A stretch of 64,000 bases of DNA from an uncultured Candidatus Saccharibacteria bacterium. GTDB lineage: Bacteria; Patescibacteriota; Minisyncoccia; Phycocordibacterales; CAIZLB01. The stretch is taken from contig CAYXQC010000002.1 of NCBI GenBank assembly GCA_964467385.1, positions 65,625-129,624 of the forward strand, in the 5' to 3' direction. This document shows positions 1,941-60,627 of the stretch, piece after piece. Under the pieces are notes generated by a model that was not told the DNA's origin, did not search any database, and was given only the letters and a program-made list of their open reading frames with translations. The translations under genes were made by a program, and so were the position numbers. Within the stretch, counting starts at the first letter, position 1, and every line of letters starts with the position of its first letter.

Positions 1941-2035
1941 GTTTATACCTTAGTGATTAAATTCATTATTCACATAGCCAGTAGTACTGCTGTATGGTTG
2001 TGCACTTTTACACATATTTATCCACAGTTTAAATC

Positions 2036-3142: not shown

Positions 3143-3457
3143 GTTTCTTTTATTTTATATTATTAAATACAGTTATTATTATTAGTACGGTGGAAAAGTG
3201 TATAACTCTTTAAACTGGCTTAAAATCAAATCGTAATCCGGCTAGCGGGTGTGGATTTAAGGTGGAATTTAAAAGAATAACTTTGTGGATATTCAGATTG
3301 TACACAAAAGAGGTGAATTTATCCTCAAATTATTCTAAAGAAATCCCCGACTTATCCCCAACTGACATAAGGATTTATACACAGTATCCACAGGGTTATC
3401 CACATATGTAGATAAGTCCTTTATGGGTATATAGATGTCTTATATCTTCCCAATGAT
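3143..3457. promoter_or_regulatory. oriC: Probable chromosomal origin (oriC): DnaA-box cluster plus an AT-rich unwinding element in the dnaN-dnaA spacer
   Basis: 9-mers matching TTATCCACA, or within one mismatch, occur at ~3250 (rc), 3284..3292 (rc), 3384..3392 and 3396..3404. Weaker TTATCCTCA and TTATCCCCA copies are also present. A 45-bp stretch at 3143..3190 is >85% AT. The classic dnaA-dnaN context supports the call. Confidence 0.65.
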
Positions 3458-4792: not shown

Positions 4793-4865
4793 GGTGCAAA
4801 CATTATAGCCCTTCGTTTTTTAAATAGAACTTGAAAAAAGTTCAGAAATGATATACAGTTGTCTC

Positions 4866-5012
4866 ATGTCACGAACATATCAACCTAAAAAGAGAAAGAG
4901 AGCAAAGACTCATGGATTCCTTGTTCGTTCTAAGACTCACGGCGGCCGACGGACTTTACAGGCTCGACGAAGAAAAGGACGAGCTAAGCTAACTGTAAAG
5001 AAGGCTAAATAA
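4866..5012 (+). CDS. rpmH: 50S ribosomal protein L34
   Basis: Hand-translated 48-aa [51 protein letters not shown]. It is below the ORF-track size cutoff and sits in the classic position upstream of rnpA. Confidence 0.85.
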
Positions 5013-5032
5013 TCTGTTTCTTTTGATTAATT

Positions 5033-7643: not shown

Positions 7644-7685
7644 ATGGAGTTTATATGCGTATAGTATAGCAGAAAAAAGTTTTAA

Positions 7686-9155: not shown

Positions 9156-9179
9156 ACGCTAATTATACACGAATTTTTA

Positions 9180-10358: not shown

Positions 10359-10387
10359 TACAGTATATCAAACATTGTGTACAAGCA

Positions 10388-10915: not shown

Positions 10916-10933
10916 CGTATCTCTATACTATCA

Positions 10934-12928
10934 TTAATTTCCGTTCGGTCGTGTTTTTGTGAGGCCGGAAGGTGTTACATTTGCTGATGGTGTGCCGATG
11001 TTATTTATACTTATATCGCTAATGCTCACCTTCTCTTCTCCTGTAGCCCCTAGTGCACTATTCATAAAATTTGTGCTGGCACTAATGTTCTGTGAAAACT
11101 CTGTTTCTCCTCCAAGACCTCGATTGGCAAGATCTGCCTTGGCTTTTTTCATATTAATCACTTGTGACGGTGCTGATGTAATGATCTGATCTTCTGTGTA
11201 TGATGCGATTACTTTAATAGCTACATGTTTTAGTCCGGCAAAGAAAATTCCCTCTCCTACATCTGACTCGAGCAAGAGATATTTTTCCTCATCGGTAAGA
11301 TTGAAGGTTTTTTGTACTACGTCGATAGATGACGGTGACTGCTTCAACAAAAGCTGAATAGAAGAGTTTGTGATAATTGGTAAGCCGTATGGTGATTTGA
11401 GGAAGTCCTCAACGTCTTGTGTAATTGTGGCTACACCGAGGTAGTATTTTCGGCCTCGTTTTGCCAAACTGTAGAGGAATGAAGCTGTATCTTCGGATTT
11501 CATCATCCACCATGCCTCGTCGATAACCATAAGTCTTTTTTTCAACTCTTTTCGGATCTGATTCCAGATGAAGTGCATTACGATGTACATCGCTACAGGT
11601 TTCAATTCATCTTCCATGTCTCGAAGTGAGAATACTACGAACTTTTTGTTGATATCAACGTTTGATGGTCTGTTGATGAATCCAGCCCAAGAACCTTTTG
11701 TATATTTTGTAAGTCTCTGTACAAGTGACTCCCCTCCTTCCATACCTGCAAGCACAAGCTCGAAGTCGGACATAAGTGGCGGTTCAACAGCTGCAAAGTT
11801 TGATTCGGGTGTAATATCCTTGAGTGCGTAGGTTTCAGTAATTGCTCGGTCAATAATCGCATCTTCTTCAGGGCTAAGACCTCCGAGCATGATTCGGAAA
11901 AGCCCTACGAGGTTGATGATGTTTGATCGAAGTACATCGGCGTTTGACTCATCTTCTCGTGCTGCTGGGAGATCGAATGGGTTGATATGGTGTTCGGAGC
12001 TGAGGGATATATTGAAAAATCGCCCACCGGTTGTTTCGGCAAGATATTCATATTCTCGTTCAGGGTCGAGTACGATTACGTCAGTATCGAACATCATTGA
12101 ACGCAAGATCTCGAGTTTTGTTGTATATGATTTACCAGAACCTGACTTTGCAAATGTGATTGAGTTGTAGTTTTCAAGTGAGAATCGGTCAAAAAGAATA
12201 AGTGAAGAGTTGTGTCGGTTAATTCCGTACAAAATACCCTTGTCTGATGTGAGGTCGAATGAAATGAATGGAAAAACGCTTGAAAGAGGTGCAGAGTTGA
12301 GCTTTGAGTGAATATTGAGCTGGTCATCTGCGATAGGAAGAACACTCTTATAGCCTTGTTCTTGCTGGAAAAGGGCTGGCTTTAAGTATACAAGGCTGGC
12401 TTCGAGGATTGATTTTACTTCTGACTCGATCTTATCAAGTTCACTTTCATTGTCACCATAGATAGATATGTAAAGTCCTACATCGAAAATCTTTTCCTGT
12501 GCCTGTTGAAGGTTATCTCGTAGTGCTTCAAGGTCTTGGTACGCGGTGTCAAGAACAGGGTCTCGTACAAGTCCCTTTTCTTCTCGAAGGTGAATCTGGC
12601 TCTGCACTTCTGCTACTTTTTTCTGGAATGTTCGAAGTACTGATGCTGTATCGATTGGGTGCACGAAGATGGAAATATCGAAAATCTTGTCGAGGTTGAT
12701 GATTGGGGCAAACCAGCTCGCTGAAAGGAATCGAGGATATGAAATTACAAAGAAAGTTCGGACAAGTTTGTCGCCAAGATTTAGTGCACGAGGGCTAATT
12801 TTGAGCGCAGAAGGGGCAATAATGTCTTGGAGTTCCAAAACACCAGACTGGTAAATCTCCTGCGGCAAAATAGACGCAATCGGGTCAGCCTTCTTTTGTG
12901 TTGGTTTTAAAAAGTCGAAGATTCCCAT
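10934..12928 (-). CDS. virB4: Type IV secretion ATPase VirB4/TrbE/PrgJ family
   Basis: 664 aa. The N-terminal domain matches Gram-positive VirB4 (VRTFFVISYPRFL...DISIFVHPID). Walker A is FAKSGSGKSYTT and Walker B is VIDEAWWMM. Confidence 0.85.
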   Translation of the reverse strand: MGIFDFLKPTQKKADPIASILPQEIYQSGVLELQDIIAPSALKISPRALNLGDKLVRTFFVISYPRFLSASWFAPIINLDKIFDISIFVHPIDTASVLRTFQKKVAEVQSQIHLREEKGLVRDPVLDTAYQDLEALRDNLQQAQEKIFDVGLYISIYGDNESELDKIESEVKSILEASLVYLKPALFQQEQGYKSVLPIADDQLNIHSKLNSAPLSSVFPFISFDLTSDKGILYGINRHNSSLILFDRFSLENYNSITFAKSGSGKSYTTKLEILRSMMFDTDVIVLDPEREYEYLAETTGGRFFNISLSSEHHINPFDLPAAREDESNADVLRSNIINLVGLFRIMLGGLSPEEDAIIDRAITETYALKDITPESNFAAVEPPLMSDFELVLAGMEGGESLVQRLTKYTKGSWAGFINRPSNVDINKKFVVFSLRDMEDELKPVAMYIVMHFIWNQIRKELKKRLMVIDEAWWMMKSEDTASFLYSLAKRGRKYYLGVATITQDVEDFLKSPYGLPIITNSSIQLLLKQSPSSIDVVQKTFNLTDEEKYLLLESDVGEGIFFAGLKHVAIKVIASYTEDQIITSAPSQVINMKKAKADLANRGLGGETEFSQNISASTNFMNSALGATGEEKVSISDISINNIGTPSANVTPSGLTKTRPNGN

Positions 12929-12943
12929 GGTGGTGCGTTATTG

Positions 12944-13591
12944 TTACTGTTGATTAAGGTGAATAGGTTTCTCGATATCGCCTGGATTGAATGTTTTGTA
13001 GAAAAGTTCGATCAATTCTTCTGTTCCTAGGTGAGCGATTCGGATTCCACATCGGACAAGTCCTTGTTCTACCACTTCCATTCGCTGCTGAAGTTGGCTC
13101 TTTGTCTCTTCGAAGGTTGCAGTGTCTTCAGCAGCTTTGGTCTTTTTGTCTTTGTTACCAAGAAAAGTGTTTTTAAGTGCGTTTGTGCCTCCGATAACTG
13201 GCGCTGAGTATGGGATAACAATAAAGAAGCTCTTGGTCATAATGCTTGTTGACTCAGTGAAACTTCGGATGAATTCGATATATTCTCGAGTCTGCATTTT
13301 CATCAAATCCCCTACTTGATCTTTAAGTCGCTCCTCTAAAAGGGCTATGTAAGGTCGTATATCAAGTCTTCGTGACTGTGTATAGATCTGAACTGAGAAG
13401 TTTATTGAGTTTAGAAAATTTTGAAATTGAAAAATGATAGATTGCTGCTCCTCGCCTGATTTGAGGGCGAAGTTCAATGATGATGCAAGAAGAATTGCAC
13501 GAAGTGAACCATCTTTGAGTACAATAACACCGTCTCTAATTTCTTTAATAGGAACAAATGCTTGTGTAGGTCTTGCATCGATGGTCGCCAT
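12944..13591 (-). CDS. Stand-alone VirB4 N-terminal-domain-like protein
   Basis: 215 aa. The N-terminus FVPIKEIRDGVIVLKDGSLRAILLASSLNFALKSGEEQQSII...LNSINFSVQIYTQSRRLD follows the pattern of the VirB4 N-terminal (CagE_TrbE_VirB) domain. No ATPase motifs are present. Confidence 0.5.
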   Translation of the reverse strand: MATIDARPTQAFVPIKEIRDGVIVLKDGSLRAILLASSLNFALKSGEEQQSIIFQFQNFLNSINFSVQIYTQSRRLDIRPYIALLEERLKDQVGDLMKMQTREYIEFIRSFTESTSIMTKSFFIVIPYSAPVIGGTNALKNTFLGNKDKKTKAAEDTATFEETKSQLQQRMEVVEQGLVRCGIRIAHLGTEELIELFYKTFNPGDIEKPIHLNQQ

Positions 13592-13696
13592 AGATGCAAT
13601 TATAGCAGATATTTTTTACACATGCTTTTTCTGTGGGTTGTTTGTGTTTTAAAAATGGAGGCGCACCATATCTTTAGAAAAATTTGAGCGAAAAAT

Positions 13697-14164
13697 CTAA
13701 AAAGGTCTCTGTATTGGCGCATCTTTTCTACTCTCAAGTTTTCCAGATTCACGAGAATAAATAGTTTCGTTGATATCAAGGCTCCATGCGAGATCTTTTA
13801 GATGGCTCTCAGATAGTTTTGGTACGGTCACAGAGGTTTTTGTTAGTTGAAGTGCCTCACTGATACTTTTAGGTGCGATTTTTTTATCAACTTTTTTCCA
13901 AATGTAGAGTTTCTGTGTAAGTGCATAGTTAAAGGCTGACTCGATCATCTCTATAAAAGGACGATTATTTGGTCGATACATAGAAAGAAGACCTGCAAAT
14001 AGTGCACAAGGAATCATAACTATGATCGCCCAGAAAAACGGAAGCATTCGGTACGCAATGAAGCAGAGTCCTGCCCCACCAGCTATGTACACGAACTGTT
14101 TAAACGTAAATGGGCCAAAAATCTTATCTTCTACCTCGATGAATTGTGGAACTTGATAGCGCAT
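13697..14164 (-). CDS. PrgI/VirB3-like small membrane protein
   Basis: 155 aa. A cytoplasmic N-terminus (VPQFIEVEDKIFGPFTFKQFVYIAGG) is followed by a TM hairpin, the typical PrgI/VirB3 architecture. Its position upstream of VirB4 fits. Confidence 0.5.
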   Translation of the reverse strand: MRYQVPQFIEVEDKIFGPFTFKQFVYIAGGAGLCFIAYRMLPFFWAIIVMIPCALFAGLLSMYRPNNRPFIEMIESAFNYALTQKLYIWKKVDKKIAPKSISEALQLTKTSVTVPKLSESHLKDLAWSLDINETIYSRESGKLESRKDAPIQRPF

Positions 14165-14206
14165 CGTTTATTGTGCATTGTGCGCAAGTGTTGCGCGAAA
14201 TTGTGA

Positions 14207-14533
14207 TTATATTGTACCACCCTCTTGAATCATTCGCATATTTTCTTGAATTGGTCGGAGGATTTTTCTGTTTACATCCATGACGAGCTCACCTGCTCTT
14301 GTTGGATCCAATCGGAGTTCCTTCTCTACTTTCTCGAGCATGCTCCCTCCTTCAAAGGTACCAAATACAACCTCGGCAATTATTGATTCTAAAGTAGCAG
14401 CTTGATCAATGTGCAGTTTGTAAACAGTATGAATTTCTTTTAACACCTGATCATAGTTGAATTTTCTAATGGCTTGTTTTGCATCTTCTGGGAGTTTTTC
14501 AAACCCTTCCCTTGATTCTATTGAGTTTGTCAT
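14207..14533 (-). CDS. Hypothetical cytoplasmic protein (T4SS-like operon)
   Basis: 108 aa with no TM and no recognisable motif. Confidence 0.4.
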   Translation of the reverse strand: MTNSIESREGFEKLPEDAKQAIRKFNYDQVLKEIHTVYKLHIDQAATLESIIAEVVFGTFEGGSMLEKVEKELRLDPTRAGELVMDVNRKILRPIQENMRMIQEGGTI

Positions 14534-14571
14534 GGGTATAGTATACAGGAAACTGTGGAAAGCTGGACTAT

Positions 14572-15315
14572 CTAGAGTACTGGTTCTCTGTAAGGATCAG
14601 TTTTTTTAGGTACAAACACCTCTTTTGGAATAGAAGCTGAAGGGGTTGTGAGTTTTGCATCTAGTTTCTGAACTATGTTTTCAGCTGGGTTTGTGTGTGG
14701 TTTGTTTGAGAAACCTATCTCAAGGGCTGGTTTGATCGAGGTGCTGATATTGTTTGTTGTGTTTTGTGCGATGGATGCTGTTGGTGTTGTAGGGTTTTGT
14801 ATGCCCTGTGCTGGTTTATTTCCAGGGATTGTTAGATTTGATGGGGTTGGGTTTTCGATTTCGCTTAGGATGTCGTGGTGAGAGAGTGGTTCGGGGGTGG
14901 TTTTTTCTTGTGCCATGTCAATATCTCTTTTGCTACTGTACGCCGCGTTTGGCTGATCAGGATCCGTTACAGGGTACTGAATTTCTCGAAGTAATTTATC
15001 AGGTAAACAAGTTGAATAAAAACCTTCAATAACAGGATCAGTTTCCTCCTCGTTTAGGTTGAGGGTTTCTATTATCGAACTAATAAAATCTTCTTCAGAT
15101 ATGAGTCCTAGTAAAAACTGTGACGTTTTTCCTCGAATAATATCGATTAACAGTTGTTTGTCTTTTGTATTTGGTCTACATCGATCAATGAAAGCCAAAA
15201 AGTTAATATTTGAATATATTTTTAAGATAAATTCTTGGATGTTTTTTGAGCTCCTCTCTAAGTTTTTTTGGTATATTTGTGTGTCGATGATATTCATTTG
15301 TGTTTTTTGAAACAA
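14572..15315 (-). CDS. Hypothetical protein with a Pro/Thr-rich C-terminal tail (T4SS-like operon)
   Basis: 247 aa: a globular N-terminal half and a low-complexity P/T/N-rich C-terminal half. Confidence 0.4.
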   Translation of the reverse strand: MFQKTQMNIIDTQIYQKNLERSSKNIQEFILKIYSNINFLAFIDRCRPNTKDKQLLIDIIRGKTSQFLLGLISEEDFISSIIETLNLNEEETDPVIEGFYSTCLPDKLLREIQYPVTDPDQPNAAYSSKRDIDMAQEKTTPEPLSHHDILSEIENPTPSNLTIPGNKPAQGIQNPTTPTASIAQNTTNNISTSIKPALEIGFSNKPHTNPAENIVQKLDAKLTTPSASIPKEVFVPKKTDPYREPVL

Positions 15316-15325
15316 GGTCCAGTGG

Positions 15326-17353
15326 CTACTTATCTTTACTTTCAGATCTTTCTATTCTGTCCAATTTATCAACAGTGTCTTCGTAGCCTTTAATTATAGC
15401 CTGCTGATCACTTTTCATTCCACGAAGTGAACTTTCAAGTGAGTTTAATGCATTCATCTCAGCAGCTTGATGCTTAGGATCGAGACCTACCATTCTTTTA
15501 TGAGTGTCAGCGATTTGTTCATCGATTTTGCTTATACGCTCTTGTGCCTTTTCATAGTTTTCTTTTGAGAATTTACCACCGGCAATACCTTTATCTTTAT
15601 TTGCATCCTGAATAAGAGCTTCAAGAGCCTCCTTGTTTTTTGGTGCACTAGATTTTTTCTTGGCTTTTGATAAGGCGGTTTTACTTGCATAGCTAAAAGT
15701 CGTACCTTTCAAATATCTTTTCTCAGCTTCTTTACCCGCAGGACCTTTTAATGCACCCTCAATCAAATTACCTCTCTCTGAGTACATTTTTGTTTTATCT
15801 TTCACTACATCATTAAAGCTTTTATTGTTACCATCTGGTCCAATTTTGAGATCTTTCAGTTTCTTACCTCTCTGCATAAGTGCAGCTGCGCCCAAACCAC
15901 CGAAAGGTAATCTCGCAGCTGCACCTGCCAAAGCTTTATTTTCAGATAAGAATGTACCAAGTCCACCAGCTGTATTTCTGGTTATACTTAAAGCAGCATT
16001 TGCTCCACTGAAAGTCATACCCAGGCTCTTTGCCCAACCTTTCCCTCTTTTTTCCCATTCCTTCGCACCATAAGCTCCAAAACTTGATGCAATTATTAGG
16101 CAACCAAGCATCATGGCAATTAAAATGGCGAATGTCATAACAGCGCCAATCATGTTTGTGCTTCCTGCGAACATGTCTATAAATGTTCCTGTGTATTTCT
16201 TTCCATCGATGGTTACACCACTAAATGTTCCACTTGGGTTTTTTCCAATCATACTAATTACTAGATATAACAAGGCCATGTATGCTGGTGCAAAAAGCAA
16301 ATTATTTTTCAGTTTTGACCACCATTTACCTGACTCGCTACCAACAGCAGGAAGTATGTCACCGAGAACAGCCACAGGTGAAAGGATCATTAAGAAAATA
16401 AGTTCGACTGTGCGCACTAACATCATTAATGCTCCTGCAAAAAAGACAAGCGCGGTGATGAGTACTAGAACAATTCCGCCAATACTTGCAATCAATAGGT
16501 TTGTTGAATTAAGTCCAAGTTTAGAAGCCTCACCTATTCCGAGTGATGATGCACCGCCGTTAGCTGTTTCACCAGCTGCTTGACCTCCGATACTAAAAAT
16601 TTTATCCATTCCTAATGCCTTCGTGAACGCTGCTGATATTCCCGAGTCTAGATCATTTGCATTTGCGCCTCCGGTTGTGTTCTGTGCTACGTTTATTATT
16701 TTGTGATAAAACTGAAGCGCCATAATATTTGAAGCATCGATTGCTACTTGCGTAAAAAACAGACTAAAGTTTATAAGCATCGCTCCTGCTACAACTTTGA
16801 TAAGCTTTTGCTTCGAATTAAAACCTCCATGATTGATTATGATACTGATTCCTATATACAAAATTACAAAAATAAAACAGAGATTGGCAATATCTCGGAA
16901 GGTTGACCAGCCAAGTGCAACGATAGGGATATCGTTCACAACACTTGCCATATTTAAAGAGTAATTGATAACAGCATTGAAAAAGATGGCAGCAACCCAT
17001 AAAACCCAAGAACATAGTCCGAGAATAGAGAAGGTCACTATGGAAATACAAGCAGGAATATCAAAACCCTCGTTCCATTTAAAACATGAGATTTCACTAT
17101 TTGAAGCACTTGCGGTTTGTTGCTGTTGCTGAGAATTAGCTGCATCATTGGGTCCCTTTCCTGCAACGGTTGCCTGTTTTGTAGCGTACGCAGCATTTGA
17201 ATTTGCTGATGCATTAGGATCTCTCGTTCGTGCTTGCCCAGTGGGTGCCGCTGTCTCAGCCTCAACCTTCTCAACAGGAAAAAAACCGCCCGCACAAATC
17301 GCAAAAAGCGTAACAAGAAGAATTATTTTCCGATAAAAATAACTTCCAGTCAT
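15326..17353 (-). CDS. Polytopic membrane protein, VirB6/TrbL-like candidate, with a long Lys-rich coiled-coil cytoplasmic tail
   Basis: 675 aa. A signal peptide is followed by a Gln/Ala/Asn-rich extracytoplasmic segment, at least 6 TM helices and a ~230-aa Lys/Glu-rich C-terminus. It is the large membrane component adjacent to VirB4, as in MPF systems. Confidence 0.5.
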   Translation of the reverse strand: MTGSYFYRKIILLVTLFAICAGGFFPVEKVEAETAAPTGQARTRDPNASANSNAAYATKQATVAGKGPNDAANSQQQQQTASASNSEISCFKWNEGFDIPACISIVTFSILGLCSWVLWVAAIFFNAVINYSLNMASVVNDIPIVALGWSTFRDIANLCFIFVILYIGISIIINHGGFNSKQKLIKVVAGAMLINFSLFFTQVAIDASNIMALQFYHKIINVAQNTTGGANANDLDSGISAAFTKALGMDKIFSIGGQAAGETANGGASSLGIGEASKLGLNSTNLLIASIGGIVLVLITALVFFAGALMMLVRTVELIFLMILSPVAVLGDILPAVGSESGKWWSKLKNNLLFAPAYMALLYLVISMIGKNPSGTFSGVTIDGKKYTGTFIDMFAGSTNMIGAVMTFAILIAMMLGCLIIASSFGAYGAKEWEKRGKGWAKSLGMTFSGANAALSITRNTAGGLGTFLSENKALAGAAARLPFGGLGAAALMQRGKKLKDLKIGPDGNNKSFNDVVKDKTKMYSERGNLIEGALKGPAGKEAEKRYLKGTTFSYASKTALSKAKKKSSAPKNKEALEALIQDANKDKGIAGGKFSKENYEKAQERISKIDEQIADTHKRMVGLDPKHQAAEMNALNSLESSLRGMKSDQQAIIKGYEDTVDKLDRIERSESKDK

Positions 17354-17440
17354 TTATTTTCTAAATTATACACCATGCGCATAATAAATAGCTATATGTT
17401 TCCCACAATTAGCCTTATTTCTTAAAATATTTTTACAATC

Positions 17441-18697
17441 TTATTGTTGTGCCTTTTCGAGTACCGTATTGAGTGCTTTTTTGATAAGAGAGTTTACAAG
17501 TTTTGTGATGATCTGATCAATTTTCTCAGCTGTAACAAGTCTCTGCTTTGGAATATTGAGAGTTTGTTCAAGAGATGACATGATCAAAGAACCTGGAGTA
17601 TATGTTTTACAGCTCCGAGTGTCACCTTTTTTGGCTGCAACATTGTCCTCACATCTTTTGAAGTTTAACCAGCCACTGTTGTTGTTAAGTTCGAATTTGG
17701 CAGTCTCTTGCTTGCCTGTGGCTTGTGCGGCGATGTACTTTCCTGCGTTTAGATATGTTCCCCAAACATTGTTTTGGTTGAATCGTGTGTTGTTCCAATC
17801 GCTCCAAAATCCTGCATTTCCTCCTGTTCCACCTGCCTGTTGCTGTGGTGACATGCTACATGCGATCTGTGCTGCCTGACCGGGATTTCCATACTGACTA
17901 TTGCTATAGGATTCTGATAGAGCTATCGCTACATCGGTCCGGTACTGAGGACACACATTTGAGCCGTTATTGTTGTAGGCGATACCAGAGATATATTGGC
18001 TCTGAATCTTGTCAGCGAGCCCTCTAAAGAAGTTCTCAGGGTTTTCTATGAAGGCAGGGTTACCTTTAAAGCCTGTTTTTGCCCACGCAATAGTTGCATT
18101 TGCTACATATTCGATAATTCCGTTCACGATACAATAGGCAATACCGTTAAAGCTGGCGCCGAAAGGCACACCGAGGATCTGCTGAAAAGCGTTCACTGAA
18201 GTGTCAGCTTCGGTTGCCGCTCTAGTTGAAGCCAAGTTGTCATTTTTGGCCTCTGAAACGATAGGTACATACTTCTGGGATTCGAGAGCTGAGCCTGCGG
18301 CCTTGCTTACGAGGGATTTGAGGCCTGAAGTTAGGGCTTGTCCGAGAAGTCCGCTTGCTGAACATCCGACCGCATCAGATGCAGCAGCTCCGGCTCCACC
18401 CGCTGTGCTACCACTTGACCCTGATGTGTCACTGTTATATGCCTCAGCCTGAGCATCGACTGTGCCTCCGAACCCTGCATTTGCCTGTGCAGCACCTCCT
18501 CCTCCGGCTGATCCTGTTGCAGTTGCTTGAACTTGCGATCCTGCCAGCGCTTGACCTAGAGTCTGTTCTCCTGGTGTTGTACCTGTATATGGAGTGTTTA
18601 CACTAGATGCATAACTAGTTACTGGTATAGAAAAGAGTACAAGAGCACTTACTATTGTAGATGAAATGAGTCTATTTAGATTCGGATAATTTATCAT
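17441..18697 (-). CDS. Secreted Gly/Ala/Ser-rich protein (T4SS-like operon)
   Basis: 418 aa. A signal peptide (IVSALVLFSIPVTSYASS) is followed by a long low-complexity G/A/S stretch and a globular C-terminal domain. Confidence 0.45.
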   Translation of the reverse strand: MINYPNLNRLISSTIVSALVLFSIPVTSYASSVNTPYTGTTPGEQTLGQALAGSQVQATATGSAGGGGAAQANAGFGGTVDAQAEAYNSDTSGSSGSTAGGAGAAASDAVGCSASGLLGQALTSGLKSLVSKAAGSALESQKYVPIVSEAKNDNLASTRAATEADTSVNAFQQILGVPFGASFNGIAYCIVNGIIEYVANATIAWAKTGFKGNPAFIENPENFFRGLADKIQSQYISGIAYNNNGSNVCPQYRTDVAIALSESYSNSQYGNPGQAAQIACSMSPQQQAGGTGGNAGFWSDWNNTRFNQNNVWGTYLNAGKYIAAQATGKQETAKFELNNNSGWLNFKRCEDNVAAKKGDTRSCKTYTPGSLIMSSLEQTLNIPKQRLVTAEKIDQIITKLVNSLIKKALNTVLEKAQQ

Positions 18698-18767
18698 GAT
18701 TACAATTCTCTTTAACTTACTTAACCTTAATTGAAATTTGATTCAAAACACTGGCTGTATCGAATCT

Positions 18768-19742
18768 CTAATTCAAGCTTATGGTTGTCGTTCCTGTTCT
18801 CCAGAAACTACCAGGCTCATTACTGTCGTAGATTATACCATTGTCGATTATGTACTGGTTGATTTGTGTGTATATATCTACTTGGCGAATCACAGCTTCA
18901 CGTACTACTTGTAGCCCGAGGAGTGCTTTCACTGGATCTTTTACTTGTCCACCGATCAAAACAAAGGCGTCAGTCTGTTTTAGGTAGTCATTCGCGAGCT
19001 GTAGGTGCGCTGCCGCAACAGGGCTCGGTACTCGAAGTTGCATTAGACCTTCCCCTATGCGTTTATAGATAGGAATCATTTCGTTTACATCACTTTCGTA
19101 TTTAACAGGATTTGCTCTAAGTGGCGCTGAAGCATCTACGATTACCTTTGCGAATGCATTTCCATAGGCTTTAATCTCGGCTGCGCTTGTTGGTGAAAAT
19201 ATATTCAAGAAAGCCAGGCTGTACTTGTTTTTATTGATATCACTAATATCTAGGTAAGAAAAACTGTTTATAAGGTCATCCTCGTTAAACTCGGTGCCAT
19301 TAATATCGTAATCCAGGTATGTGTTGAAGATATCTTTGCTAAACCGATCACTTACATTGTCTTTAGGGGATGGGTCAAAAGGGTTGGTCGAACTCGCCAA
19401 AACCCCTAAAGTCTGTAGTTTTGCCTGCTGGAGTGCCTCGAGAAGCTTTTGATTTGCTTCTCTTTCCTCTGTGTTTTGTCCAGCAACTGCTTGAATGCCG
19501 GCTATTTCTATGTCGTGAGCTTTTCTAAGTGAGATTTTATTTGTAAGAAGAATTCCGATAACTGCAAGACAAACTGCGCCCACAATAAGAACTCGTTTGT
19601 GGGGAAGAAAGTCTTTACCCTGTGCCTCACTGGTTTGGGTCACTGGCTTTCCTGTAAGCGAAATTTCGTCATACGAGGTTTCTGGTATTCTATTCGAAGA
19701 GGTGCGATTTTTTTGCGAAAAATTTCCAGAAAAGTAAATCAT
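18768..19742 (-). CDS. Bitopic membrane protein (first gene of the T4SS-like operon)
   Basis: 324 aa. A cytoplasmic N-terminus is followed by one TM helix (VLIVGAVCLAVIGILL) and a ~250-aa external domain. Confidence 0.45.
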   Translation of the reverse strand: MIYFSGNFSQKNRTSSNRIPETSYDEISLTGKPVTQTSEAQGKDFLPHKRVLIVGAVCLAVIGILLTNKISLRKAHDIEIAGIQAVAGQNTEEREANQKLLEALQQAKLQTLGVLASSTNPFDPSPKDNVSDRFSKDIFNTYLDYDINGTEFNEDDLINSFSYLDISDINKNKYSLAFLNIFSPTSAAEIKAYGNAFAKVIVDASAPLRANPVKYESDVNEMIPIYKRIGEGLMQLRVPSPVAAAHLQLANDYLKQTDAFVLIGGQVKDPVKALLGLQVVREAVIRQVDIYTQINQYIIDNGIIYDSNEPGSFWRTGTTTISLN

Positions 19743-30512: not shown

Positions 30513-31147
30513 GTGTACAGTTTAAGAATTTTAAAATTAAATACGATAAATTGCATGATTTTTTAATCGCAAAAATTGTAACTGTGGATAACTTAAATTT
30601 CGCATTAATAAAGGACATTACTGTTACCATAGCGTGGCTTATATAAAGGACATTACGGCACAAAAATAATAAGATAGTGAAAACAAAAAAGAGAACAAAT
30701 GTCCTTTACATATTTTATAAAAGACATACAATAGTAATCAGATGAGCGTTCGGCATTGAAGCAACTGCTCTTTCAAAAAATAAAAGACACAACAGTACGA
30801 GTTTACTGAGGTCTACAGGGATTCAAGATATGAGACAATTCCCCAACATATCTTAAATTTTTTGGAATTCGTCCGAATTCTTATTTCTCTGCACTCCCTT
30901 GAGTAATATACGTCAGTTTCGTGTCGAAAGGTTTCCGGTCAAAAGACCGGTGCACTTGGCGCATTTTGTTTGGTTTGGTTAGTTATTAATTAATCAATTT
31001 TTGTTTGTTTTGTTCTTTGGTCCCCTTTGGTTCCTCTCCGTCGCCTCGCTTGCCCGGTCTTTTTTGTTTCCTGATTTTTTAATAAAGAAAAGCACGTCTC
31101 TTGTATAACGTGTTTCCTGTGTAACATGCACTTTTTTGAGTAAGTTT

Positions 31148-32632
31148 CTACTTTACACTATGTTTAGCTAAAATTTTCTCTATTTCATCTTTTTCAGCCT
31201 TATCTCTAGCCTTTTTTCCACTATCTGCCCTATTTTTGAGTGTGGCGGTATCAAGTTTATTTAGTTCATTTGCCATATCAGTAAGTGTTACATGGGTATT
31301 TTTTTCAGGTGCTTCTAGGACCTCTTCGAGGATCGCTGCCAATATATACCCTATTCTCGGTCCAGGTTCCACGTGTAACGTGTTAATTAGGTCGTTTCCG
31401 TTAATCTTGAGCATTGAAACCGATATAGGATCACGGAGAACCTGATCAATCATGGCTGTGTACTTTCGAAGTCGATATGGATTCTCCTTTGGTCGCCCCG
31501 TTCCCACTCGGTCGCACACTCGAAGGTTCATAAGGCTCCAGATATTCTCCTTACCTACATTTGCAACCATTCGACGTACGGCAGAAAGCGATATCTGCTC
31601 AGTATCAGAGAAAAACATGTGCCATCGTACAAATGTATATACCAAATCAATAACCTTGTTAGAGTAATGGAGTCTATTTAGAATGTCTTTTGCCATTGTC
31701 GCGCCGATAACTTCGTGCCCGTAGAAGGTATAATCCCCTTTCTCCCTAGAGAAACGTCGAGATTTAGGTTTACCAATGTCGTGTAACAAAGCCGCAAGAC
31801 GAACTTCAAATGGGTATTTCTTGTCTGCTGCACACTGAAGGCTTCGTAGGAGGTGCTCAAAGACATCATATGAATGAGCTTGATTTTGTTTCGTGTGTAA
31901 CCCTTCCTCGAGCTCTGGGAGAATATACTTGAGGATTCCAACTTTTTGGCACATAAATAGTGCAATCATCGGGTTATCAGACATTATAATCTTTGTGAAC
32001 TCATCTCGAATGCGCTCCTTGGCAATCTTCCCTAACATTTCATGTGAAACACTAATTGCAGCTAAAGTACCCATGTTAATCGTGAAACCAAGTTCGGCAG
32101 ATAGGCGAACTGCGCGCATAATGCGCAAGCCATCCTCTCGAAATCGTGTTTCAGGATTACCTACACATCGGATAATCTTATTTTTGATATCCTCTTCCCC
32201 GCCGAACATATCTACGTAGATGTCTCTTATTGGATCATAAGCAATGGCGTTGATTGTGAAGTCTCTTCGTCCTAAATCGTCCTTTATATCCTTACTAAAA
32301 GACACGCTATCCGGCCGTCGGCCATCGCTATATGTGGACTCTGTCCGATAAGGTGTAACTTCTACTATAAAAGACTCATCCCCTTCGTACACTACACCAA
32401 CTGTCCCGTAAGTATTTTCATAAAACGTTTTGTCAAAAAGCTTGATAATCTCTTCTGGGTTGGCGTCTGTGGTAACGTCCCAATCTTTTGGTTCCCTTCC
32501 GATAAGGATATCTCGTACTGAACCACCAACAATAAAGGACTCAAACCCTCCATTTTGAAGGGTTTTGCAGATATTCATCACCTTCTCTGGGATAAGGTGC
32601 TTCGATTTTAGGATTCGGTGTTCGCTCATCAC
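31148..32632 (-). CDS. cca: CCA-adding enzyme / poly(A) polymerase family tRNA nucleotidyltransferase with an HD domain
   Basis: GGSVRD nucleotidyltransferase motif and an HD domain (LAALLHDIGK). Confidence 0.85.
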   Translation of the reverse strand: MMSEHRILKSKHLIPEKVMNICKTLQNGGFESFIVGGSVRDILIGREPKDWDVTTDANPEEIIKLFDKTFYENTYGTVGVVYEGDESFIVEVTPYRTESTYSDGRRPDSVSFSKDIKDDLGRRDFTINAIAYDPIRDIYVDMFGGEEDIKNKIIRCVGNPETRFREDGLRIMRAVRLSAELGFTINMGTLAAISVSHEMLGKIAKERIRDEFTKIIMSDNPMIALFMCQKVGILKYILPELEEGLHTKQNQAHSYDVFEHLLRSLQCAADKKYPFEVRLAALLHDIGKPKSRRFSREKGDYTFYGHEVIGATMAKDILNRLHYSNKVIDLVYTFVRWHMFFSDTEQISLSAVRRMVANVGKENIWSLMNLRVCDRVGTGRPKENPYRLRKYTAMIDQVLRDPISVSMLKINGNDLINTLHVEPGPRIGYILAAILEEVLEAPEKNTHVTLTDMANELNKLDTATLKNRADSGKKARDKAEKDEIEKILAKHSVK

Positions 32633-32695
32633 TAAGATAGTAATACAGAGTTTGATTTTTTGCTATTTTAATGTACTATTGTCGTTACCATAAAT

Positions 32696-32767
32696 GCACC
32701 TATGGTGAAATGGATATCACAACGGTCTTCGGAACCGTTATTCTAGGTTCGAATCCTGGTGGGTGCA
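32696..32767 (+). tRNA. tRNA-Arg (anticodon TCG)
   Basis: Hand-folded cloverleaf: 7-bp acceptor GCACCTA/TGGGTGC, anticodon stem ACGGT/ACCGT with loop CTTCGGA, T-loop TTCGAAT. Confidence 0.75.
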
Positions 32768-32834
32768 CAAGCTTTGCTTAAATACCCTATCCAATGCAAA
32801 ATTGATAAGGCATTTATCAGTAAGCGTAAAATAA

Positions 32835-32905
32835 GCGGTTATGGTTTAGTGGTAGAATGCGTCCTTGCCAAGGACGAGACGGGAGTTCGATTCTCCCTAA
32901 CCGCA
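32835..32905 (+). tRNA. tRNA-Gly (anticodon GCC)
   Basis: Acceptor GCGGTTA/TAACCGC, D-loop AGTGGTA, anticodon stem CGTCC/GGACG with loop TTGCCAA, T-loop TTCGATT. Confidence 0.75.
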
Positions 32906-33422
32906 CAATTTGGTCTCGGACTTATAAATGACTAAAATGTCAAAAATACACAAAAAACTGTCTTTATGGGGCAGTTTTTTATTACTTGCAGTTGGGAAAA
33001 TGTGTAAAACTGTGGATAACTAAGTGGATATGTGTATAAAAGACGTCCGTTATGGTGTCCTATAAATGAAGGATTTTAGGGGTTGAAAAGTCAATATTAT
33101 GGCTATGAATAAGGGTTTTAAGGAATTCAGCTACTTAAAAGCCATCCGAATGAGACAATTTTCAGGCATAAAGGCCAAATATATGTTTCACGTGCTACAT
33201 ATATAACTTTATAGATAGGTGTTACATGTGGAACAAGCTATTTTGCTTGAAAATAGGCTTTAAATCGATGTTTTGGTGGTAGTACGGACCTTGTTTCATG
33301 ATTAACATGATTGCTTGTGTATTATTCTGGCCTATGCGGCACAGATTATTGCAGCAAGAGTCCTATATAGGTTGAGAAAATCTTTATATAAGTTTCATGT
33401 TAAACATGTAAGCTTTAGTTTA

Positions 33423-33923
33423 ATGAATAATAAAAGGGTAAGAAGGGCGAAACACAATATAAGGATAGGTCGAATAGGAGAGTTAATAGCCTCTAAATAT
33501 CTGGAAAAGGCCAGTTTCTCCATTCTGACCTGTAATTTAAGGCTTAAAGGGGGAGAAGTGGACATTTTGGCCTATAAGAAACCTGATCATTATGTCTTTG
33601 AAATAAAGACATTGTATGTGCAGGAGTATATGCATGATGGATTGTCCAATGAGACTGAATGTAACCCTTGGGCGCCGGAGAATAACCTAAATAATTTGAA
33701 GATTAGAAAGTTGAGGCAACTAGGGAAGTCTTTGAGGATTTTTACTGGGTCAGAATTTGTTCGCATATGTGGGCTAGCCATAAGAATTGTAGCCAGTGAC
33801 CGTGTTACACCTGAAACATTTGATGAGGAAGATCCGGTTCTTGAGTCTTCGCGAATCAAAGATTTTCTTAAGGGAGCAAGAATATTCATTAAAAGATATG
33901 ACGACATTATCTGTACCTTTTAA
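33423..33923 (+). CDS. YraN/UPF0102-family endonuclease-like protein. The ORF-track start at 33315 is probably over-extended
   Basis: RIGRIGELIASKYLE...GGEVDILAYKK...VFEIKT matches the YraN pattern G.GE..A..YL ... GE(I/V)D(L/I)(I/L)A ... V.VE(V/I)K. Confidence 0.55.
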   Translation: MNNKRVRRAKHNIRIGRIGELIASKYLEKASFSILTCNLRLKGGEVDILAYKKPDHYVFEIKTLYVQEYMHDGLSNETECNPWAPENNLNNLKIRKLRQLGKSLRIFTGSEFVRICGLAIRIVASDRVTPETFDEEDPVLESSRIKDFLKGARIFIKRYDDIICTF

Positions 33924-37403: not shown

Positions 37404-37676
37404 TTAGTTGATTGCGTCTTTGAGTCCTTTCGCTGCTCGGAACTTGGCTACTTTCATAGCTGCAACCTTAACCATTTCACCAGTTCGTGGGTTTCGTGCT
37501 GTTCGAGCTGCTCGTGTTTTTGCAGAAAAAATACCGAAGCCTGCAACTGAAACTTCTTCGCCTCTCTTGAGAGTTGCGATAATGTTATCAAACACTGCAT
37601 CTACGATTTGTTCTGCTTGTACTTTTGTTGTTCCAAGTACTCCGTGTACTTTTTCAACTAGTGCTGCTTTATTCAT
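37404..37676 (-). CDS. hup: DNA-binding protein HU
   Basis: 90 aa with the canonical HU arm (GFGIFSAKTRAARTARNPRTGE). Confidence 0.9.
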   Translation of the reverse strand: MNKAALVEKVHGVLGTTKVQAEQIVDAVFDNIIATLKRGEEVSVAGFGIFSAKTRAARTARNPRTGEMVKVAAMKVAKFRAAKGLKDAIN

Positions 37677-57004: not shown

Positions 57005-58645
57005 GTGACTGATGCAGATATCGAGAAAACTGAAAAAATAGAAATCACAAGGTTTTTTGTATTTTTTGGATTGATAATGTTGGCGATCTCTGTAATTGCA
57101 GGCCGATATGTTTTAGTGAAAAGACATGACGTAGAGACAAAAAGTTTTTACACAACATACGGAATCAAAGATGATGTCGAATTAGCAAAAAATAAAGTTG
57201 AGATATTTGGAAAAGTCATTTCAGAACCAGAAAATAAGGCTGGGTATCAACGCTTGGTAGTTTCGGTCGTAGCTGGGATTTTTACGGATAGATCTACAAA
57301 TAAATTTGCAGACCAAGAACAGGCATCTCAAATTGAATCAACTGAAAGTAGGAGAATATTTAAAGACACAAAAATTTTGATAAAAAATAAAAACCAGGAT
57401 CAGCAAAATTTTCAATATGCTGATTATGTTCGATTTACTACAAAGTTAAATAGGCCGAAAAATATAACAGGGGAGGATGGTCGGACTTTTGACTACGAAT
57501 CTTATCTTTCTAAAGATGACATATTTTTTGTTGGTGACACGTTTGATATGACGTCCGACATGTCGTCTGGCTATGACACTGTCACAGGTGATCAAAGTGT
57601 AAATTTAAAATCAAAAACACTTCAAGAAAAAATAATCATTGGTTTGTATTCATTTAAGAAAAAATTTATGGAGCATGTTGAGCAAAGTTTACCTCTACCT
57701 CATGCCTATTTGGCGAACGGTTTGGTCATATCCGGAAAAGGGTCACTCAGTAAAATTATTCAAGATCAATTTCAGAAAGTAGGTCTCATACATATTGTAG
57801 TTTTGTCTGGATTTAATATTTCAATTATTGGTGAAAGTATCATTAAAATTTTATCTTTTCTACCAAAAATTTTGAGTGGAATTTTAGGCTCAATCGGAAT
57901 CATCTTGTTTGGCATAATGGCGGGAGGAGGAGCAACTGTATATCGTTCAGTTATCATGGCACTGATTGGAATCTATGCACGAATTTTCGACCGGAAGAAT
58001 TCAGCAATTATGTCACTTTTTTTGGCTGGAACTTTGATGCTTTTAGTTAATCCAAAATTACTATTTGAGGATCCTGGTTTCCAATTAAGCTTCATGGCAA
58101 CATTTGGGCTTATTAGTCTATCAAGTCCAATAGAGAAAATTTTGATGTCTTTTTGGAAATCATTTGCACCCAAAATTGGTTGTAAGGCAGAACCTGGAAA
58201 AATATTGAAAGGTGTTTTTGAATTGATATCCTCGACTCTTGCGACTCAGGTTTCTACGTTACCACTTATTATTCAATTCTCTGGGTTGGCATCCTTTGTA
58301 GCATTACCGGTCAATATGATAGTCCTTCCATTTATCCCCCTCACCATGCTCATGGTGTTTTTTATTGGCGCACTCAGTTTCATAAATCCATGGCTCAGTT
58401 TTATCCCCACCATTGTTTCGTGGTTCCTACTGTCGTATGAATTCATGGTGGTGAAACTCGGGTCAAGTGTTCCGTATGGATTTATAAAACTTGGACCGGT
58501 GTCTAAACAGTGGATCTTTACTCTGTATTTCGTAGTTGTGCTTTTGGTGTCAATAGGAAATCTCGATATTTTTGCAAGAATCATAAAAACTTTAGTTAAA
58601 GTTATCCACAAGTTTGTCAGAAAAAAGCAGTTTTGTGTAACTTGA
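57005..58645 (+). CDS. comEC: ComEC/Rec2 competence channel: N-terminal (DUF4131 plus Competence) domains only
   Basis: Polytopic membrane protein with the Competence-domain motif HIVVLSGFNISIIG. It lacks a metallo-beta-lactamase domain. Confidence 0.75.
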   Translation: MTDADIEKTEKIEITRFFVFFGLIMLAISVIAGRYVLVKRHDVETKSFYTTYGIKDDVELAKNKVEIFGKVISEPENKAGYQRLVVSVVAGIFTDRSTNKFADQEQASQIESTESRRIFKDTKILIKNKNQDQQNFQYADYVRFTTKLNRPKNITGEDGRTFDYESYLSKDDIFFVGDTFDMTSDMSSGYDTVTGDQSVNLKSKTLQEKIIIGLYSFKKKFMEHVEQSLPLPHAYLANGLVISGKGSLSKIIQDQFQKVGLIHIVVLSGFNISIIGESIIKILSFLPKILSGILGSIGIILFGIMAGGGATVYRSVIMALIGIYARIFDRKNSAIMSLFLAGTLMLLVNPKLLFEDPGFQLSFMATFGLISLSSPIEKILMSFWKSFAPKIGCKAEPGKILKGVFELISSTLATQVSTLPLIIQFSGLASFVALPVNMIVLPFIPLTMLMVFFIGALSFINPWLSFIPTIVSWFLLSYEFMVVKLGSSVPYGFIKLGPVSKQWIFTLYFVVVLLVSIGNLDIFARIIKTLVKVIHKFVRKKQFCVT

Positions 58646-58765
58646 AACAAGGCAGTATTGAGGCTGTATTTTCGACTTATCCACAAGATTGCAAAAAAGT
58701 TTTAAAAATTATCCACAAAAAAACACCGAGGCTAGTACTTCCCCGGTGAGTTTTCCACAAGTTTG
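58598..58765 (+). promoter_or_regulatory. Array of four same-orientation DnaA-box-like motifs (TTATCCACA x3, TTTTCCACA x1)
   Basis: TTATCCACA at 58602..58610, 58677..58685 and 58709..58717, and TTTTCCACAAGTTTGT at 58751. Two copies share the extended CCACAAGTTTGT. The array spans the 3' end of comEC-N and the convergent spacer to sod. Confidence 0.4.
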
Positions 58766-58803
58766 TGCGAGTTACTCTGCACAATTCTACATTCGAAAAT
58801 GTG

Positions 58804-59385
58804 CTATGTAACTCGGTTCTCTACCACACTCCAGTTCAAGTTTTTGAAGAATGCTTCAATGTATTTTTTCTTTTCTGATGGTGGAACATCGAGCATATAT
58901 GAGTGTTCCCACATGTCGAGTGCAAGGATGACTTTGAGGGAAGTGAGATGTCCGAGATGCTGTTCGTCGACCCATACATTCAGAAGTTTGTCCGATACGG
59001 GATCGTAATACAGAATCGCCCAACCGATTCCTCGCGTCATCGCGAGCTGTTTGAAAGATGTAACCCATGTTTCAAAAGATCCAAAATCGGCAACGATTTT
59101 CTGAACTAACTTTGAGCTAGAATCGCTGTCTTTTTGACCTCCAATAAATTGCTCAAAATAGTACTCATGATTTCTCATGCCATCAAATTCAAACCCAAAT
59201 CTTCGACGAAGTTCACCGATGGTATATGCATTTTTGTCAGCATCAACTTGAAGCTCTGAAATTTTTTCAAGAATTAAATTCGCGTGCTTCACGTATCCTG
59301 CATACAACTTCATGTGCTCATCGATTGTTCGCTGACTGATATCGACTAATTGCCCGATTTCGAATTTCTGTTCTGTAAAACTCAT
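58804..59385 (-). CDS. sodA: Fe/Mn superoxide dismutase
   Basis: Metal ligand context (HMKLYAGYVKHAN, DMWEHSYMLD) and SOD length. Confidence 0.85.
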   Translation of the reverse strand: MSFTEQKFEIGQLVDISQRTIDEHMKLYAGYVKHANLILEKISELQVDADKNAYTIGELRRRFGFEFDGMRNHEYYFEQFIGGQKDSDSSSKLVQKIVADFGSFETWVTSFKQLAMTRGIGWAILYYDPVSDKLLNVWVDEQHLGHLTSLKVILALDMWEHSYMLDVPPSEKKKYIEAFFKNLNWSVVENRVT

Positions 59386-59430
59386 AAAGATAATAGATAA
59401 AAATAAGCTAATAATGAATTAATAATACCA

Positions 59431-60627
59431 ATGAAGAATAATGAAAACCAGCCAATAAACCATGTGTCCAATACGACTTATATGACGCGCCAAGTATACC
59501 ATGATGACCAATTTTTTAAATCAGCTTTTTTCTGGGTTTGTGCTTTTACCTTTATTGCTTTTTTGATTAATCTGTTTATATTTTGGTCTGTATTTTTTGA
59601 GTTGTCCGCAAATTTTTTAGAGCAAAATGATTCGGTACAGTTTTACGCACTAAATGTCGGACAAGGTGATGCTTTGTATTTTGAATTTCCGAGCGGTCAA
59701 TCACTACTTATTGATAGTGGAAATAAGGATAAAAAAGTTATCGAAGAATTATCAAAAGTTAAACATATTTTTGATAAAGAAATTGATGTCGTACTTATTA
59801 CACATGCTGATGCGGATCATATTGGTTCTATGGAATCAGTGATTGATAGATTTAGTCCAAAATTATTTTTGCATTCTGGCGTGGCTGGAAAAAGTACAAT
59901 GTATAAGAACTTGATGGGGCGAGCTAATAGTCTTGAAGCGAGTTCTTCATCATCTGCACAAAAAATAAATTTGCAAAATAATATTAAAAGTATTCCACTC
60001 TATGATGGAATGATTATTAGATTTAAAAATTTTATTGAATCTGTAGATTTGCATGGGCCAACGCTTGAAATTTTGCACCCAAATTTTTCGCCAAGGATTG
60101 ATAGATACATTGAGTGCATGAAAGATGTTTCATCTACATCGCCTAAATCACAAAAAAATTCTTCAAAACAAAAAGTAGCAAAAACAAACGCAAAAACAAA
60201 AAAGTGTAATTCTTTGCTTCAATTCGAAACAAACGAATATTCTGTCGTCGCACGACTTGTATACGGATCGAGCTCGATTATGTTAACTGGTGATGCGAGT
60301 GTTGAAAGCGAAAAAGATATTATGCAAAATCATCCACCTGCTGATCTTGCTGCAACTGTACTAAAAGTCGGACACCATGGTTCGAAAACCTCTACCTCTC
60401 AAGGTTTTATTGATTTAGTTCAACCTAAATACGTAGTGGTATCAGTTGGTGAACAAAATAGGTACGGACATCCAAGCCAAGATGTACTTGGTCGTATCAC
60501 TGATTATTTTGGTGGCACATCTCATGGTGAGAGTATGGACGGAATCTATACAGATCGAATACTTAGGACTGATATAGAAAACACCATCCATTTTGTGTTG
60601 GATGGTGTTTTCGCTAAGCGTCGTTAG
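59431..60627 (+). CDS. ComEC-type metallo-beta-lactamase domain protein with an N-terminal TM anchor (C-terminal half of a split ComEC)
   Basis: FYALNVGQGDALYFE..LLIDSG and HADADHIGS metallo-beta-lactamase motifs, HHGSKTS and the RYGHPS ComEC C-terminal signature. Confidence 0.7.
   Translation: MKNNENQPINHVSNTTYMTRQVYHDDQFFKSAFFWVCAFTFIAFLINLFIFWSVFFELSANFLEQNDSVQFYALNVGQGDALYFEFPSGQSLLIDSGNKDKKVIEELSKVKHIFDKEIDVVLITHADADHIGSMESVIDRFSPKLFLHSGVAGKSTMYKNLMGRANSLEASSSSSAQKINLQNNIKSIPLYDGMIIRFKNFIESVDLHGPTLEILHPNFSPRIDRYIECMKDVSSTSPKSQKNSSKQKVAKTNAKTKKCNSLLQFETNEYSVVARLVYGSSSIMLTGDASVESEKDIMQNHPPADLAATVLKVGHHGSKTSTSQGFIDLVQPKYVVVSVGEQNRYGHPSQDVLGRITDYFGGTSHGESMDGIYTDRILRTDIENTIHFVLDGVFAKRR

Follow-up and report, generated by a model that had tools for sequence, protein, structure and literature searches.

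Four co-directional DnaA boxes between comEC and sod in a Patescibacteria genome: a candidate origin-proximal, non-origin binding site for the replication initiator

The array of DnaA boxes described here lies in a 64,000-nt stretch of DNA from an uncultured Candidatus Saccharibacteria bacterium (contig CAYXQC010000002.1, positions 65,625 to 129,624), which we call the window; positions are those of the window unless a relative is named, and box counts cover the window, on both strands. The best protein matches of the window are to metagenome-assembled genomes of Patescibacteria/Paceibacteria. The array is found where the gene for the N-terminal part of ComEC (comEC-N) converges with the gene for a superoxide dismutase (sod), and it consists of three perfect boxes and one box with a single mismatch within 158 bp, all on the + strand (Table 1). 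A preliminary description of this DNA had counted three perfect boxes and a near-perfect one in a single orientation within 165 bp, and this count holds. It had also placed the array in the spacer between the convergent gene ends, which is right for boxes 2 to 4, all in the 158-bp spacer, but not for box 1, which is inside the comEC-N open reading frame (ORF). The boxes bracket the intrinsic terminator of sod, whose hairpin, read on the + strand, is also turned towards comEC but has a weaker tail there, and a decayed parS-like motif is flanked by boxes 1 and 2. The comEC gene itself is split (57005-60627), the DUF4131 plus Competence part and the metallo-beta-lactamase (MBL) part, a domain with which ComEC normally ends, being separate + strand genes with sod (- strand) in between, and this arrangement is kept in all syntenic relatives examined.

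From start to start, the boxes are 75, 32 and 42 bp apart. With a helical turn of 10.5 bp, each spacing is at most 0.15 turn off a whole number of turns, which is weak evidence, of roughly P = 0.03, for a common phase. The preliminary description had noticed a 12-mer present in two copies; this is CCACAAGTTTGT, common to boxes 1 and 4, and the likeness extends to boxes 1, 2 and 4, which have in common the 16-mer TT[A/T]TCCACAAG[T/A]TTG at a spacing of 75/74 bp, with no further copy in the window. Box 3 has only TTATCCACAA in common with them. When the three 75-bp units are aligned, their homology is confined to a motif of 16-22 nt; tandem duplication of a 75-bp unit was considered and rejected on this ground and because Tandem Repeats Finder (TRF) found no repeat. 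Tracts of six to seven A follow boxes 1, 2 and 3 (58621-58626, 58693-58698 and 58717-58723, respectively). A short tandem of 11 bp, AGGCAGTATTG/AGGCTGTATTT, is also present between boxes 1 and 2, at 58650-58670.

The clustering of these boxes is not due to chance. Seven perfect boxes are present in the window, where dinucleotide shuffles predict 0.64 and Markov models of order 1-4 predict 0.64-0.74; run within the window, the enrichment check proposed in the preliminary description speaks for a real cluster. Non-coding DNA, 10.1% of the window, contains six of the seven (binomial P ~7e-6), and a model trained on non-coding DNA alone expects only 0.07-0.26 perfect boxes in that part. From composition, finding three perfect boxes within 165 bp has a probability of ~9e-7; with the observed density as background, it is still only ~1e-3. 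In box density, the array comes second in the window, after the spacer between dnaA and dnaN. Its sequence is identical base for base in four independent assemblies, and it is therefore not an assembly artefact.

Table 1. Coordinates of the array, of its neighbours and of related features in the window and in relatives (+ and -, strand)
Feature	Position	Strand	Remarks
DnaA box 1	58602..58610	+	perfect TTATCCACA, extended AGTTATCCACAAGTTTGT; in the final 15 codons of the comEC-N ORF
DnaA box 2	58677..58685	+	perfect TTATCCACA, extended ACTTATCCACAAGATTG
DnaA box 3	58709..58717	+	perfect TTATCCACA; abuts the T-tract of the sod terminator
DnaA box 4	58751..58759	+	TTTTCCACA, 1 mismatch, extended AGTTTTCCACAAGTTTGT; in the sod 3' untranslated region, terminator stem 2 nt away
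comEC N-terminal part (DUF4131 + Competence domains)	57005..58645	+	Pfam
Fe/Mn superoxide dismutase (sod), convergent with comEC-N	58804..59385	-	Pfam
sod intrinsic terminator	58717..58748	-	CACCGGGG-9 nt-CCUCGGUG, then U7; 8-bp stem
Decayed parS-like motif	58634..58649		TGTGTAACTTGAAACA, 3 mismatches to TGTTNCACGTGAAACA, CACGTG core broken; between boxes 1 and 2
dnaN	2036-3142	-	Pfam
dnaA	3458-4792	-	Pfam
Probable oriC, dnaA-dnaN spacer (315 bp)	3143..3457		11 boxes with <=2 mismatches
Perfect DnaA box just 3' of dnaN	2018..2026	+	TTATTCACA at 1966 and TTTTACACA at 2006 alongside
Single conserved DnaA box	30582..30593	-	AGTTATCCACAG, 71 bp downstream of xth-like gene
Four-box block	33001..33039	-	TTATACACA, ATATCCACT, TTATCCACA, TTTTACACA; same strand, 8-12 bp apart
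Cluster of 10 parS-like sites (<=3 mismatches to TGTTNCACGTGAAACA)	31111..33818		around cca, tRNA genes and NERD gene; surrounds conserved DnaA boxes
Positions of the parS-like sites	31111, 31365, 31887, 32036, 32074, 33184, 33220, 33292, 33391, 33803
comEC/sod spacer of relative L005	4223-4336		six boxes (<=1 mismatch) within 114 bp, architecture differing from that of the window array
comEC/sod spacer of relative L024/L025			one perfect AGTTATCCACA, orientation as in the window
comEC/sod spacer of ~22 other syntenic loci			no boxes

A promoter and terminator scan of the array gave no signal above background (three promoter-like sites against 1.8 expected, none of them driving a gene), and the spacer, sitting between convergent gene ends, does not have the position of a DnaA-regulated promoter or operator. 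Candidates for small ORFs in the array all have TTG or GTG as start codon and run into real genes, and none is credible. Run on the whole window at the gathering threshold, Rfam returned four tRNAs only, and permissive Rfam scans of the array spacer and of the relatives' spacers returned nothing credible. With the exception of the sod terminator hairpin, the spacer does not fold better than its shuffles on either strand (z = 0.22 and -0.87). Because promoter, credible ORF, Rfam match and unusual folding are all absent from it, a role as a protein-binding site at the DNA level fits the array best. The motif TGTGTAAC was tried as a general gene-end motif and rejected, as it is not enriched (3 matches against 1.5 expected); it was later reread as part of the parS-like motif.

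The genes dnaA and dnaN are in the same window, and the spacer between them is the probable oriC. It contains the seventh perfect box of the window (at 3396) and about ten degenerate boxes; next to the tandem boxes at 3197 and 3189 (- strand) come TAC(TAA)4 and an AT-rich stretch which abuts the dnaN start (3143-3200), and this part looks like the arrangement of box, DnaA-trio and unwinding element known for Bacillus. Boxes, DnaA-trios and an unwinding element are reported to form the standard layout of an origin (Richardson 2016; Pelliciari 2021). Upstream of dnaA (4793-5032) there are no boxes, and the cumulative GC skew has its minimum at 2-4 kb and rises over the remaining window. The array lies ~55 kb from this spacer, on a source contig of 313 kb. 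Since dnaA, dnaN and a typical oriC are found at that distance, and since neither an AT-rich unwinding element nor trio repeats adjoin its boxes, the array is a non-origin cluster; the earlier wording "far from oriC" was thus correct in placing the array outside the origin, but the origin itself is in the same window. A further box, just 3' of dnaN, had been listed as an 11/13 match to the extended motif at 2018..2028; the match is 12/13, over 2016-2028.

The DnaA encoded in the window has retained the residues that would recognise this 9-mer. Its domain IV, aligned to chain 1J1V of the E. coli DnaA-DNA co-crystal, has unchanged equivalents of R399, P423, D433, H434, T435 and H439, residues which we take to be the base contacts of the structure by Fujikawa et al. 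2003. Because these domain IV residues are kept and the same 9-mer is present in the oriC of the same genome, DnaA is the most parsimonious reader of the sites. Beside dnaA there is a block of genes on the - strand (6168-19742) which resembles a type IV secretion-like cluster, with a TraG/VirB4-like ATPase (10934-12928), a PrgI-family protein (13697-14164), an SLT transglycosylase (7686-9155) and many ORFs without a Pfam match; with an origin at 3.3 kb, these genes would be transcribed head-on to replication.

We hold with moderate confidence that the array is an origin-proximal, non-origin cluster of DnaA boxes which would bind DnaA and lower the amount of initiator available to oriC. Domain IV of DnaA would dock on each box, so that at least four DnaA molecules could be held on three consensus, presumably high-affinity, sites and a near-consensus one, all co-directional and facing roughly the same side of the helix. 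Being near oriC, the locus would be duplicated soon after initiation, which would double the strong non-origin sites, and initiator would then be drawn off oriC either by titration or by hydrolysis of ATP-DnaA stimulated on boxes of the same direction. Such a mode of action has been proposed for the origin-proximal DnaA-box clusters of B. subtilis and for datA of E. coli; for the array, occupancy by DnaA in vivo and a resulting lower potential for initiation are inferred.

In Bacillus, DnaA-box clusters (DBCs) are found at different genes in each species and nearly always near oriC, and the deletion of all six leads to over-initiation (PMC3245932). Like the B. subtilis DBCs (Ishikawa 2007, Okumura 2012, PMC3245932), which are intergenic clusters of consensus boxes outside oriC and mostly close to it, the array has boxes which match the consensus of its own oriC, which are clustered beyond chance and which lie outside the origin but in its neighbourhood. 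In those clusters the position varies between species while the proximity to oriC persists, and the turnover of the array among relatives matches this behaviour; a further likeness is that the host is not known to have SeqA or Hda. The array differs from the DBCs in having four boxes only, at wider spacing. The datA locus of E. coli resembles the array as a non-coding element of ~180 bp with high-affinity boxes and a weaker one, all in the same direction, and in its probable placement within roughly 10% of the genome from oriC; in minimal datA, the essential boxes all have one direction and a single site for IHF (integration host factor) between boxes is required (PMC5742627). All four boxes of the array are on the + strand, as in datA, but their spacing is different and, since no IHF consensus is found among them, the array is not a strict member of the datA class. 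DARS1 and DARS2 of E. coli are, like the array, small clusters of at least three boxes in non-coding DNA, and their core has three boxes at fixed spacing with box I opposed to boxes II and III (PMC5742627). We rejected a DARS-like reading, which needs one opposed box, as the boxes of the array are all co-directional and spaced otherwise. The preliminary suggestion of a titration or inactivation locus of the datA or DARS type therefore survives in part, in the co-directional boxes of the datA and DBC type, and fails on the orientation for DARS and on the IHF consensus for datA. Finally, the cluster of Streptomyces coelicolor (Smulczyk-Krawczyszyn 2006), in the accounts of PMC5742627 and PMC3245932 that cite it, is also outside the origin, near oriC and implicated in the control of replication, with another box consensus and number and with experimental support. 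By analogy, the array would be closest in its mode of action to the B. subtilis clusters, with a resemblance to minimal datA in size and box direction.

Conservation was examined in relatives obtained by a ComEC profile search of contigs, a search with a single ComEC protein having given none. The collections hold no close relative, the nearest identities being 45-52% for ComEC, ~70% for SOD and ~57% for RNase H; that L005 might be the closest was considered and rejected, since the syntenic relatives all stand at about the same distance from the organism of the window. These relatives share the gene order recJ-rnhA-comEC(N)-sod(reversed)-MBL-rpmB-M50 and not the array, whose presence in related genomes the preliminary description had proposed as a check: one relative (L024/L025) has a single box in the spacer and L005 has a cluster built differently (Table 1). 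In L005, a 16-bp inverted repeat of tandem boxes holds the comEC stop codon in its loop and is accompanied by an inverted pair of TTATGCACA. Two terminator-like hairpins of the same spacer have DnaA-box stems (TTATCCACTTATCCAC/GTGGATAAGTGGATAA and GTTATGCACAG/CTGTGCATAAC) with T-runs following on the sod strand, and binding of DnaA may there be physically coupled to termination. The array is evidently lineage-specific, and its site, the comEC/sod spacer, is one where boxes have landed repeatedly.

In every relative, the comEC stop coincides with a bidirectional terminator hairpin, and in eight relatives the loop of this hairpin carries the conserved motif TGTAACA(C/T)GTGAAAG, which has 2-3 mismatches to the universal parS consensus and an intact core; the parS-like motif of the window array is homologous to this conserved loop motif (TGTAACACGTGAAAG). 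The hairpin has covarying stems and a conserved loop of 17-18 nt, CTGTGTAACACGTGAAAG, containing the stop codon (comEC/sod spacers L007:6550-6705, L008:6555-6717, L009:5500-5700, L012:5340-5560 and L019-L022). More conserved blocks are present in the relatives' spacers, namely ACTTC(T/C)CT... and GGTAATCA(G/C)CACGAGAG, with complementary CTCTC/GAGAG stretches, which suggests an undescribed structured element, without a match in Rfam, in the 3' region of sod.

Several observations weigh against DnaA sequestration by the array. By its absence from ~22 syntenic relatives, the array looks young or dispensable. It has four boxes only, 32-75 bp apart, a looser arrangement than the packed boxes which support cooperative DnaA oligomers, and the longer 16-mer common to three of them could reflect a local duplication or another specificity. 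The IHF consensus WATCAANNNNTTR (<=1 mismatch) is absent from 58600-58800 and is not enriched in the window. A gene of the HU family is present at 37404-37676, and the A-tracts after boxes 1 to 3 may bend the DNA intrinsically, which could substitute for an IHF site. The figure for box frequency is that of the 64-kb window and not of the whole genome, and a literature search found no paper on DnaA boxes or replication data in Patescibacteria.

Outside the array and the origin, the window holds boxes of much deeper conservation. The preliminary description was right that perfect 13-mers recur (ACTGTGGATAACT, at 30581-30593 and 33009-33021), and the second of them belongs to a larger unit of four boxes on the same strand (Table 1). 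Two relatives, L034 and L035, have a CCA-adding enzyme ~70% identical to that of the window and keep the full gene order around 28-43 kb of the window; in the L035 genome, cca and comEC are ~27 kb apart, like in the window. Both have AGTTATCCACAG 40-70 bp downstream of the xth-like gene, orthologous to the box at 30582-30593. A block of 39 nt, GTCTTTTATACACATATCCACTTAGTTATCCACAGTTTT (window 33001-33045; L034:9600-9640; L035:9309-9349), with 3-4 head-to-tail boxes, is 100% identical between genomes whose proteins differ by 30-50%, in a flanking spacer that is poorly conserved. It lies ~95 bp downstream of the gene for tRNA-Gly(gcc) and, in the three genomes, ~145-150 bp from a conserved parS-like site; E. 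coli datA is also located just downstream of a tRNA-Gly gene (PMC10950094). The dispersed 13-mers are orthologously conserved DnaA boxes whose shared flanks probably reflect an extended preference, AGTTATCCACAG, and these other non-origin boxes of the lineage are under strong purifying selection.

The parS-like sites which surround the conserved boxes are in large excess, with 19 strand matches in the window against 2.6 expected and 14 in L035 against 0.74 expected. At positions with a conserved amino acid, the cca codons under the parS-like sites are identical across the three genomes in 12 of 15 cases, against 47 of 289 elsewhere (P = 3e-7), and these sites are therefore under selection at the DNA level. 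The cluster at 31111-33818, conserved in L034 and L035, is probably the chromosomal centromere, ~28-30 kb from oriC, to which ParB would bind. Between cca and the xth-like gene there are 635 bp of non-coding DNA (30513-31147) without a match in Rfam. This region contains repeats of AAAGGACATTAC at 30612 and 30638, inverted at ~30700; in L034 they are conserved as AAAGGACATT..AATGTCCTTT, an inverted repeat. The region also has a promoter-like site (30705-30732) and an unusual stretch rich in T and G (30960-31080), and it may combine an operator with an unannotated RNA.

Against sequestration of the initiator, a first alternative is a local role in transcription, in which DnaA bound where the two 3' ends meet would block polymerase or assist termination. 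This would limit read-through from comEC-N into antisense sod, on towards the MBL gene, or from sod into comEC, and would link these genes to the replication cycle. The sod terminator hairpin has boxes 3 and 4 directly on either side, the terminator-like hairpins found at the same place in L005 are made of inverted DnaA boxes, and at some B. subtilis clusters DnaA is known to regulate transcription (PMC3245932). For most relatives a plain bidirectional terminator without boxes is enough, no promoter-like site stands above background, and boxes 1 and 2 are 40-120 bp from the hairpin; we regard this role as rather unlikely.

A somewhat fainter possibility is that the array takes part in organising the origin domain or the centromere, its DnaA boxes cooperating with parS-like sites or replacing them, in line with the conserved cluster 25 kb away. 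The interplay of Soj/Spo0J with DnaA in Bacillus is a precedent. The eight relatives with an intact loop motif have no boxes, while the motif is decayed in the window, L005, L024 and L010, with boxes in three of these four (Fisher P = 0.018, phylogeny ignored); the lineages are few and phylogenetically non-independent. In three genomes, moreover, the four-box block and a conserved parS-like site are neighbours. DnaA binds at the centromere parS of Caulobacter, according to the citation of Mera et al. 2014 in PMC11151105, and that region, as far as this secondary account describes it, is like the window in having boxes beside parS-type sites tens of kilobases from oriC, most clearly at the 33.0-kb block. 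It is unlike the window in that the parS-like motif of the array is decayed, with three mismatches and a broken core, and in that the ParB and DnaA sites of the lineage are predictions from sequence. The window has no parA or parB gene.

That a different regulator reads the 16-mer (TTATCCACAAGWTTG), its likeness to a DnaA box being incidental, was the alternative offered by the preliminary description, and we find it unlikely. The regular spacing of its three copies and its absence from the rest of the window would fit such a regulator. The extension is missing from box 3, the 9-mer core is exactly a box of the same genome's oriC, the remaining boxes of the window have only AGTTATCCACA(G) in common, and the L005 cluster has the 9-mer and not the 16-mer. 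Just as improbable is a non-functional by-product, in which boxes spread through local duplication in a weakly constrained spacer. The lack of conservation in relatives and the flanking bases common to boxes 1, 2 and 4 are compatible with it, while the units are non-homologous beyond 16-22 nt, TRF sees no tandem repeat and the three perfect 9-mers are still intact; that L005 and L024 gained boxes in this spacer independently speaks for selection. Very improbable, finally, is a second origin, a plasmid or phage origin remnant or a DNA-uptake sequence linked to comEC, for which one could quote the iteron-like direct repeats, the adjacency to a DNA-uptake gene and the inverted repeats in L005 terminators, reminiscent of neisserial uptake sequences: unlike at 3143-3200, no unwinding element or trio repeats stand beside the boxes, no Rep or mobile-element gene is adjacent, the array has no plasmid similarity, and seven copies in 64 kb, almost all non-coding, are far too sparse for an uptake sequence.

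The array is thus real and statistically secure, and it is of a kind already known from E. coli and Bacillus. To our knowledge, nothing is known of the control of replication initiation in Patescibacteria (the Candidate Phyla Radiation, CPR), whose genomes are tiny, and the window offers a testable map for it: an oriC of standard layout, deeply conserved non-origin boxes within a conserved parS-like cluster, and a younger array of four boxes. If the array binds DnaA, the principle of an origin-proximal sink, as in Bacillus and E. coli, would extend to a very distant phylum, and a simple in vitro system, made up of a synthesised DnaA and a 250-bp fragment, would be available for organisms which cannot be grown alone. 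A bolder proposal, to which we give a low probability, is that DnaA boxes and parS-like sites form one interchangeable system which marks and organises the origin-proximal 60 kb in this lineage of Patescibacteria; it may find a basis in the fixed distance (~150 bp) of the deeply conserved four-box block from a conserved parS-like site and in the independent replacement of the loop motif by boxes in up to three lineages. If true, DnaA would have a structural, ParB-like role in the organisation or segregation of the origin domain in ultra-small bacteria with few known replication regulators. The conserved association between DnaA boxes and parS-like sites is a more promising lead than the young array.

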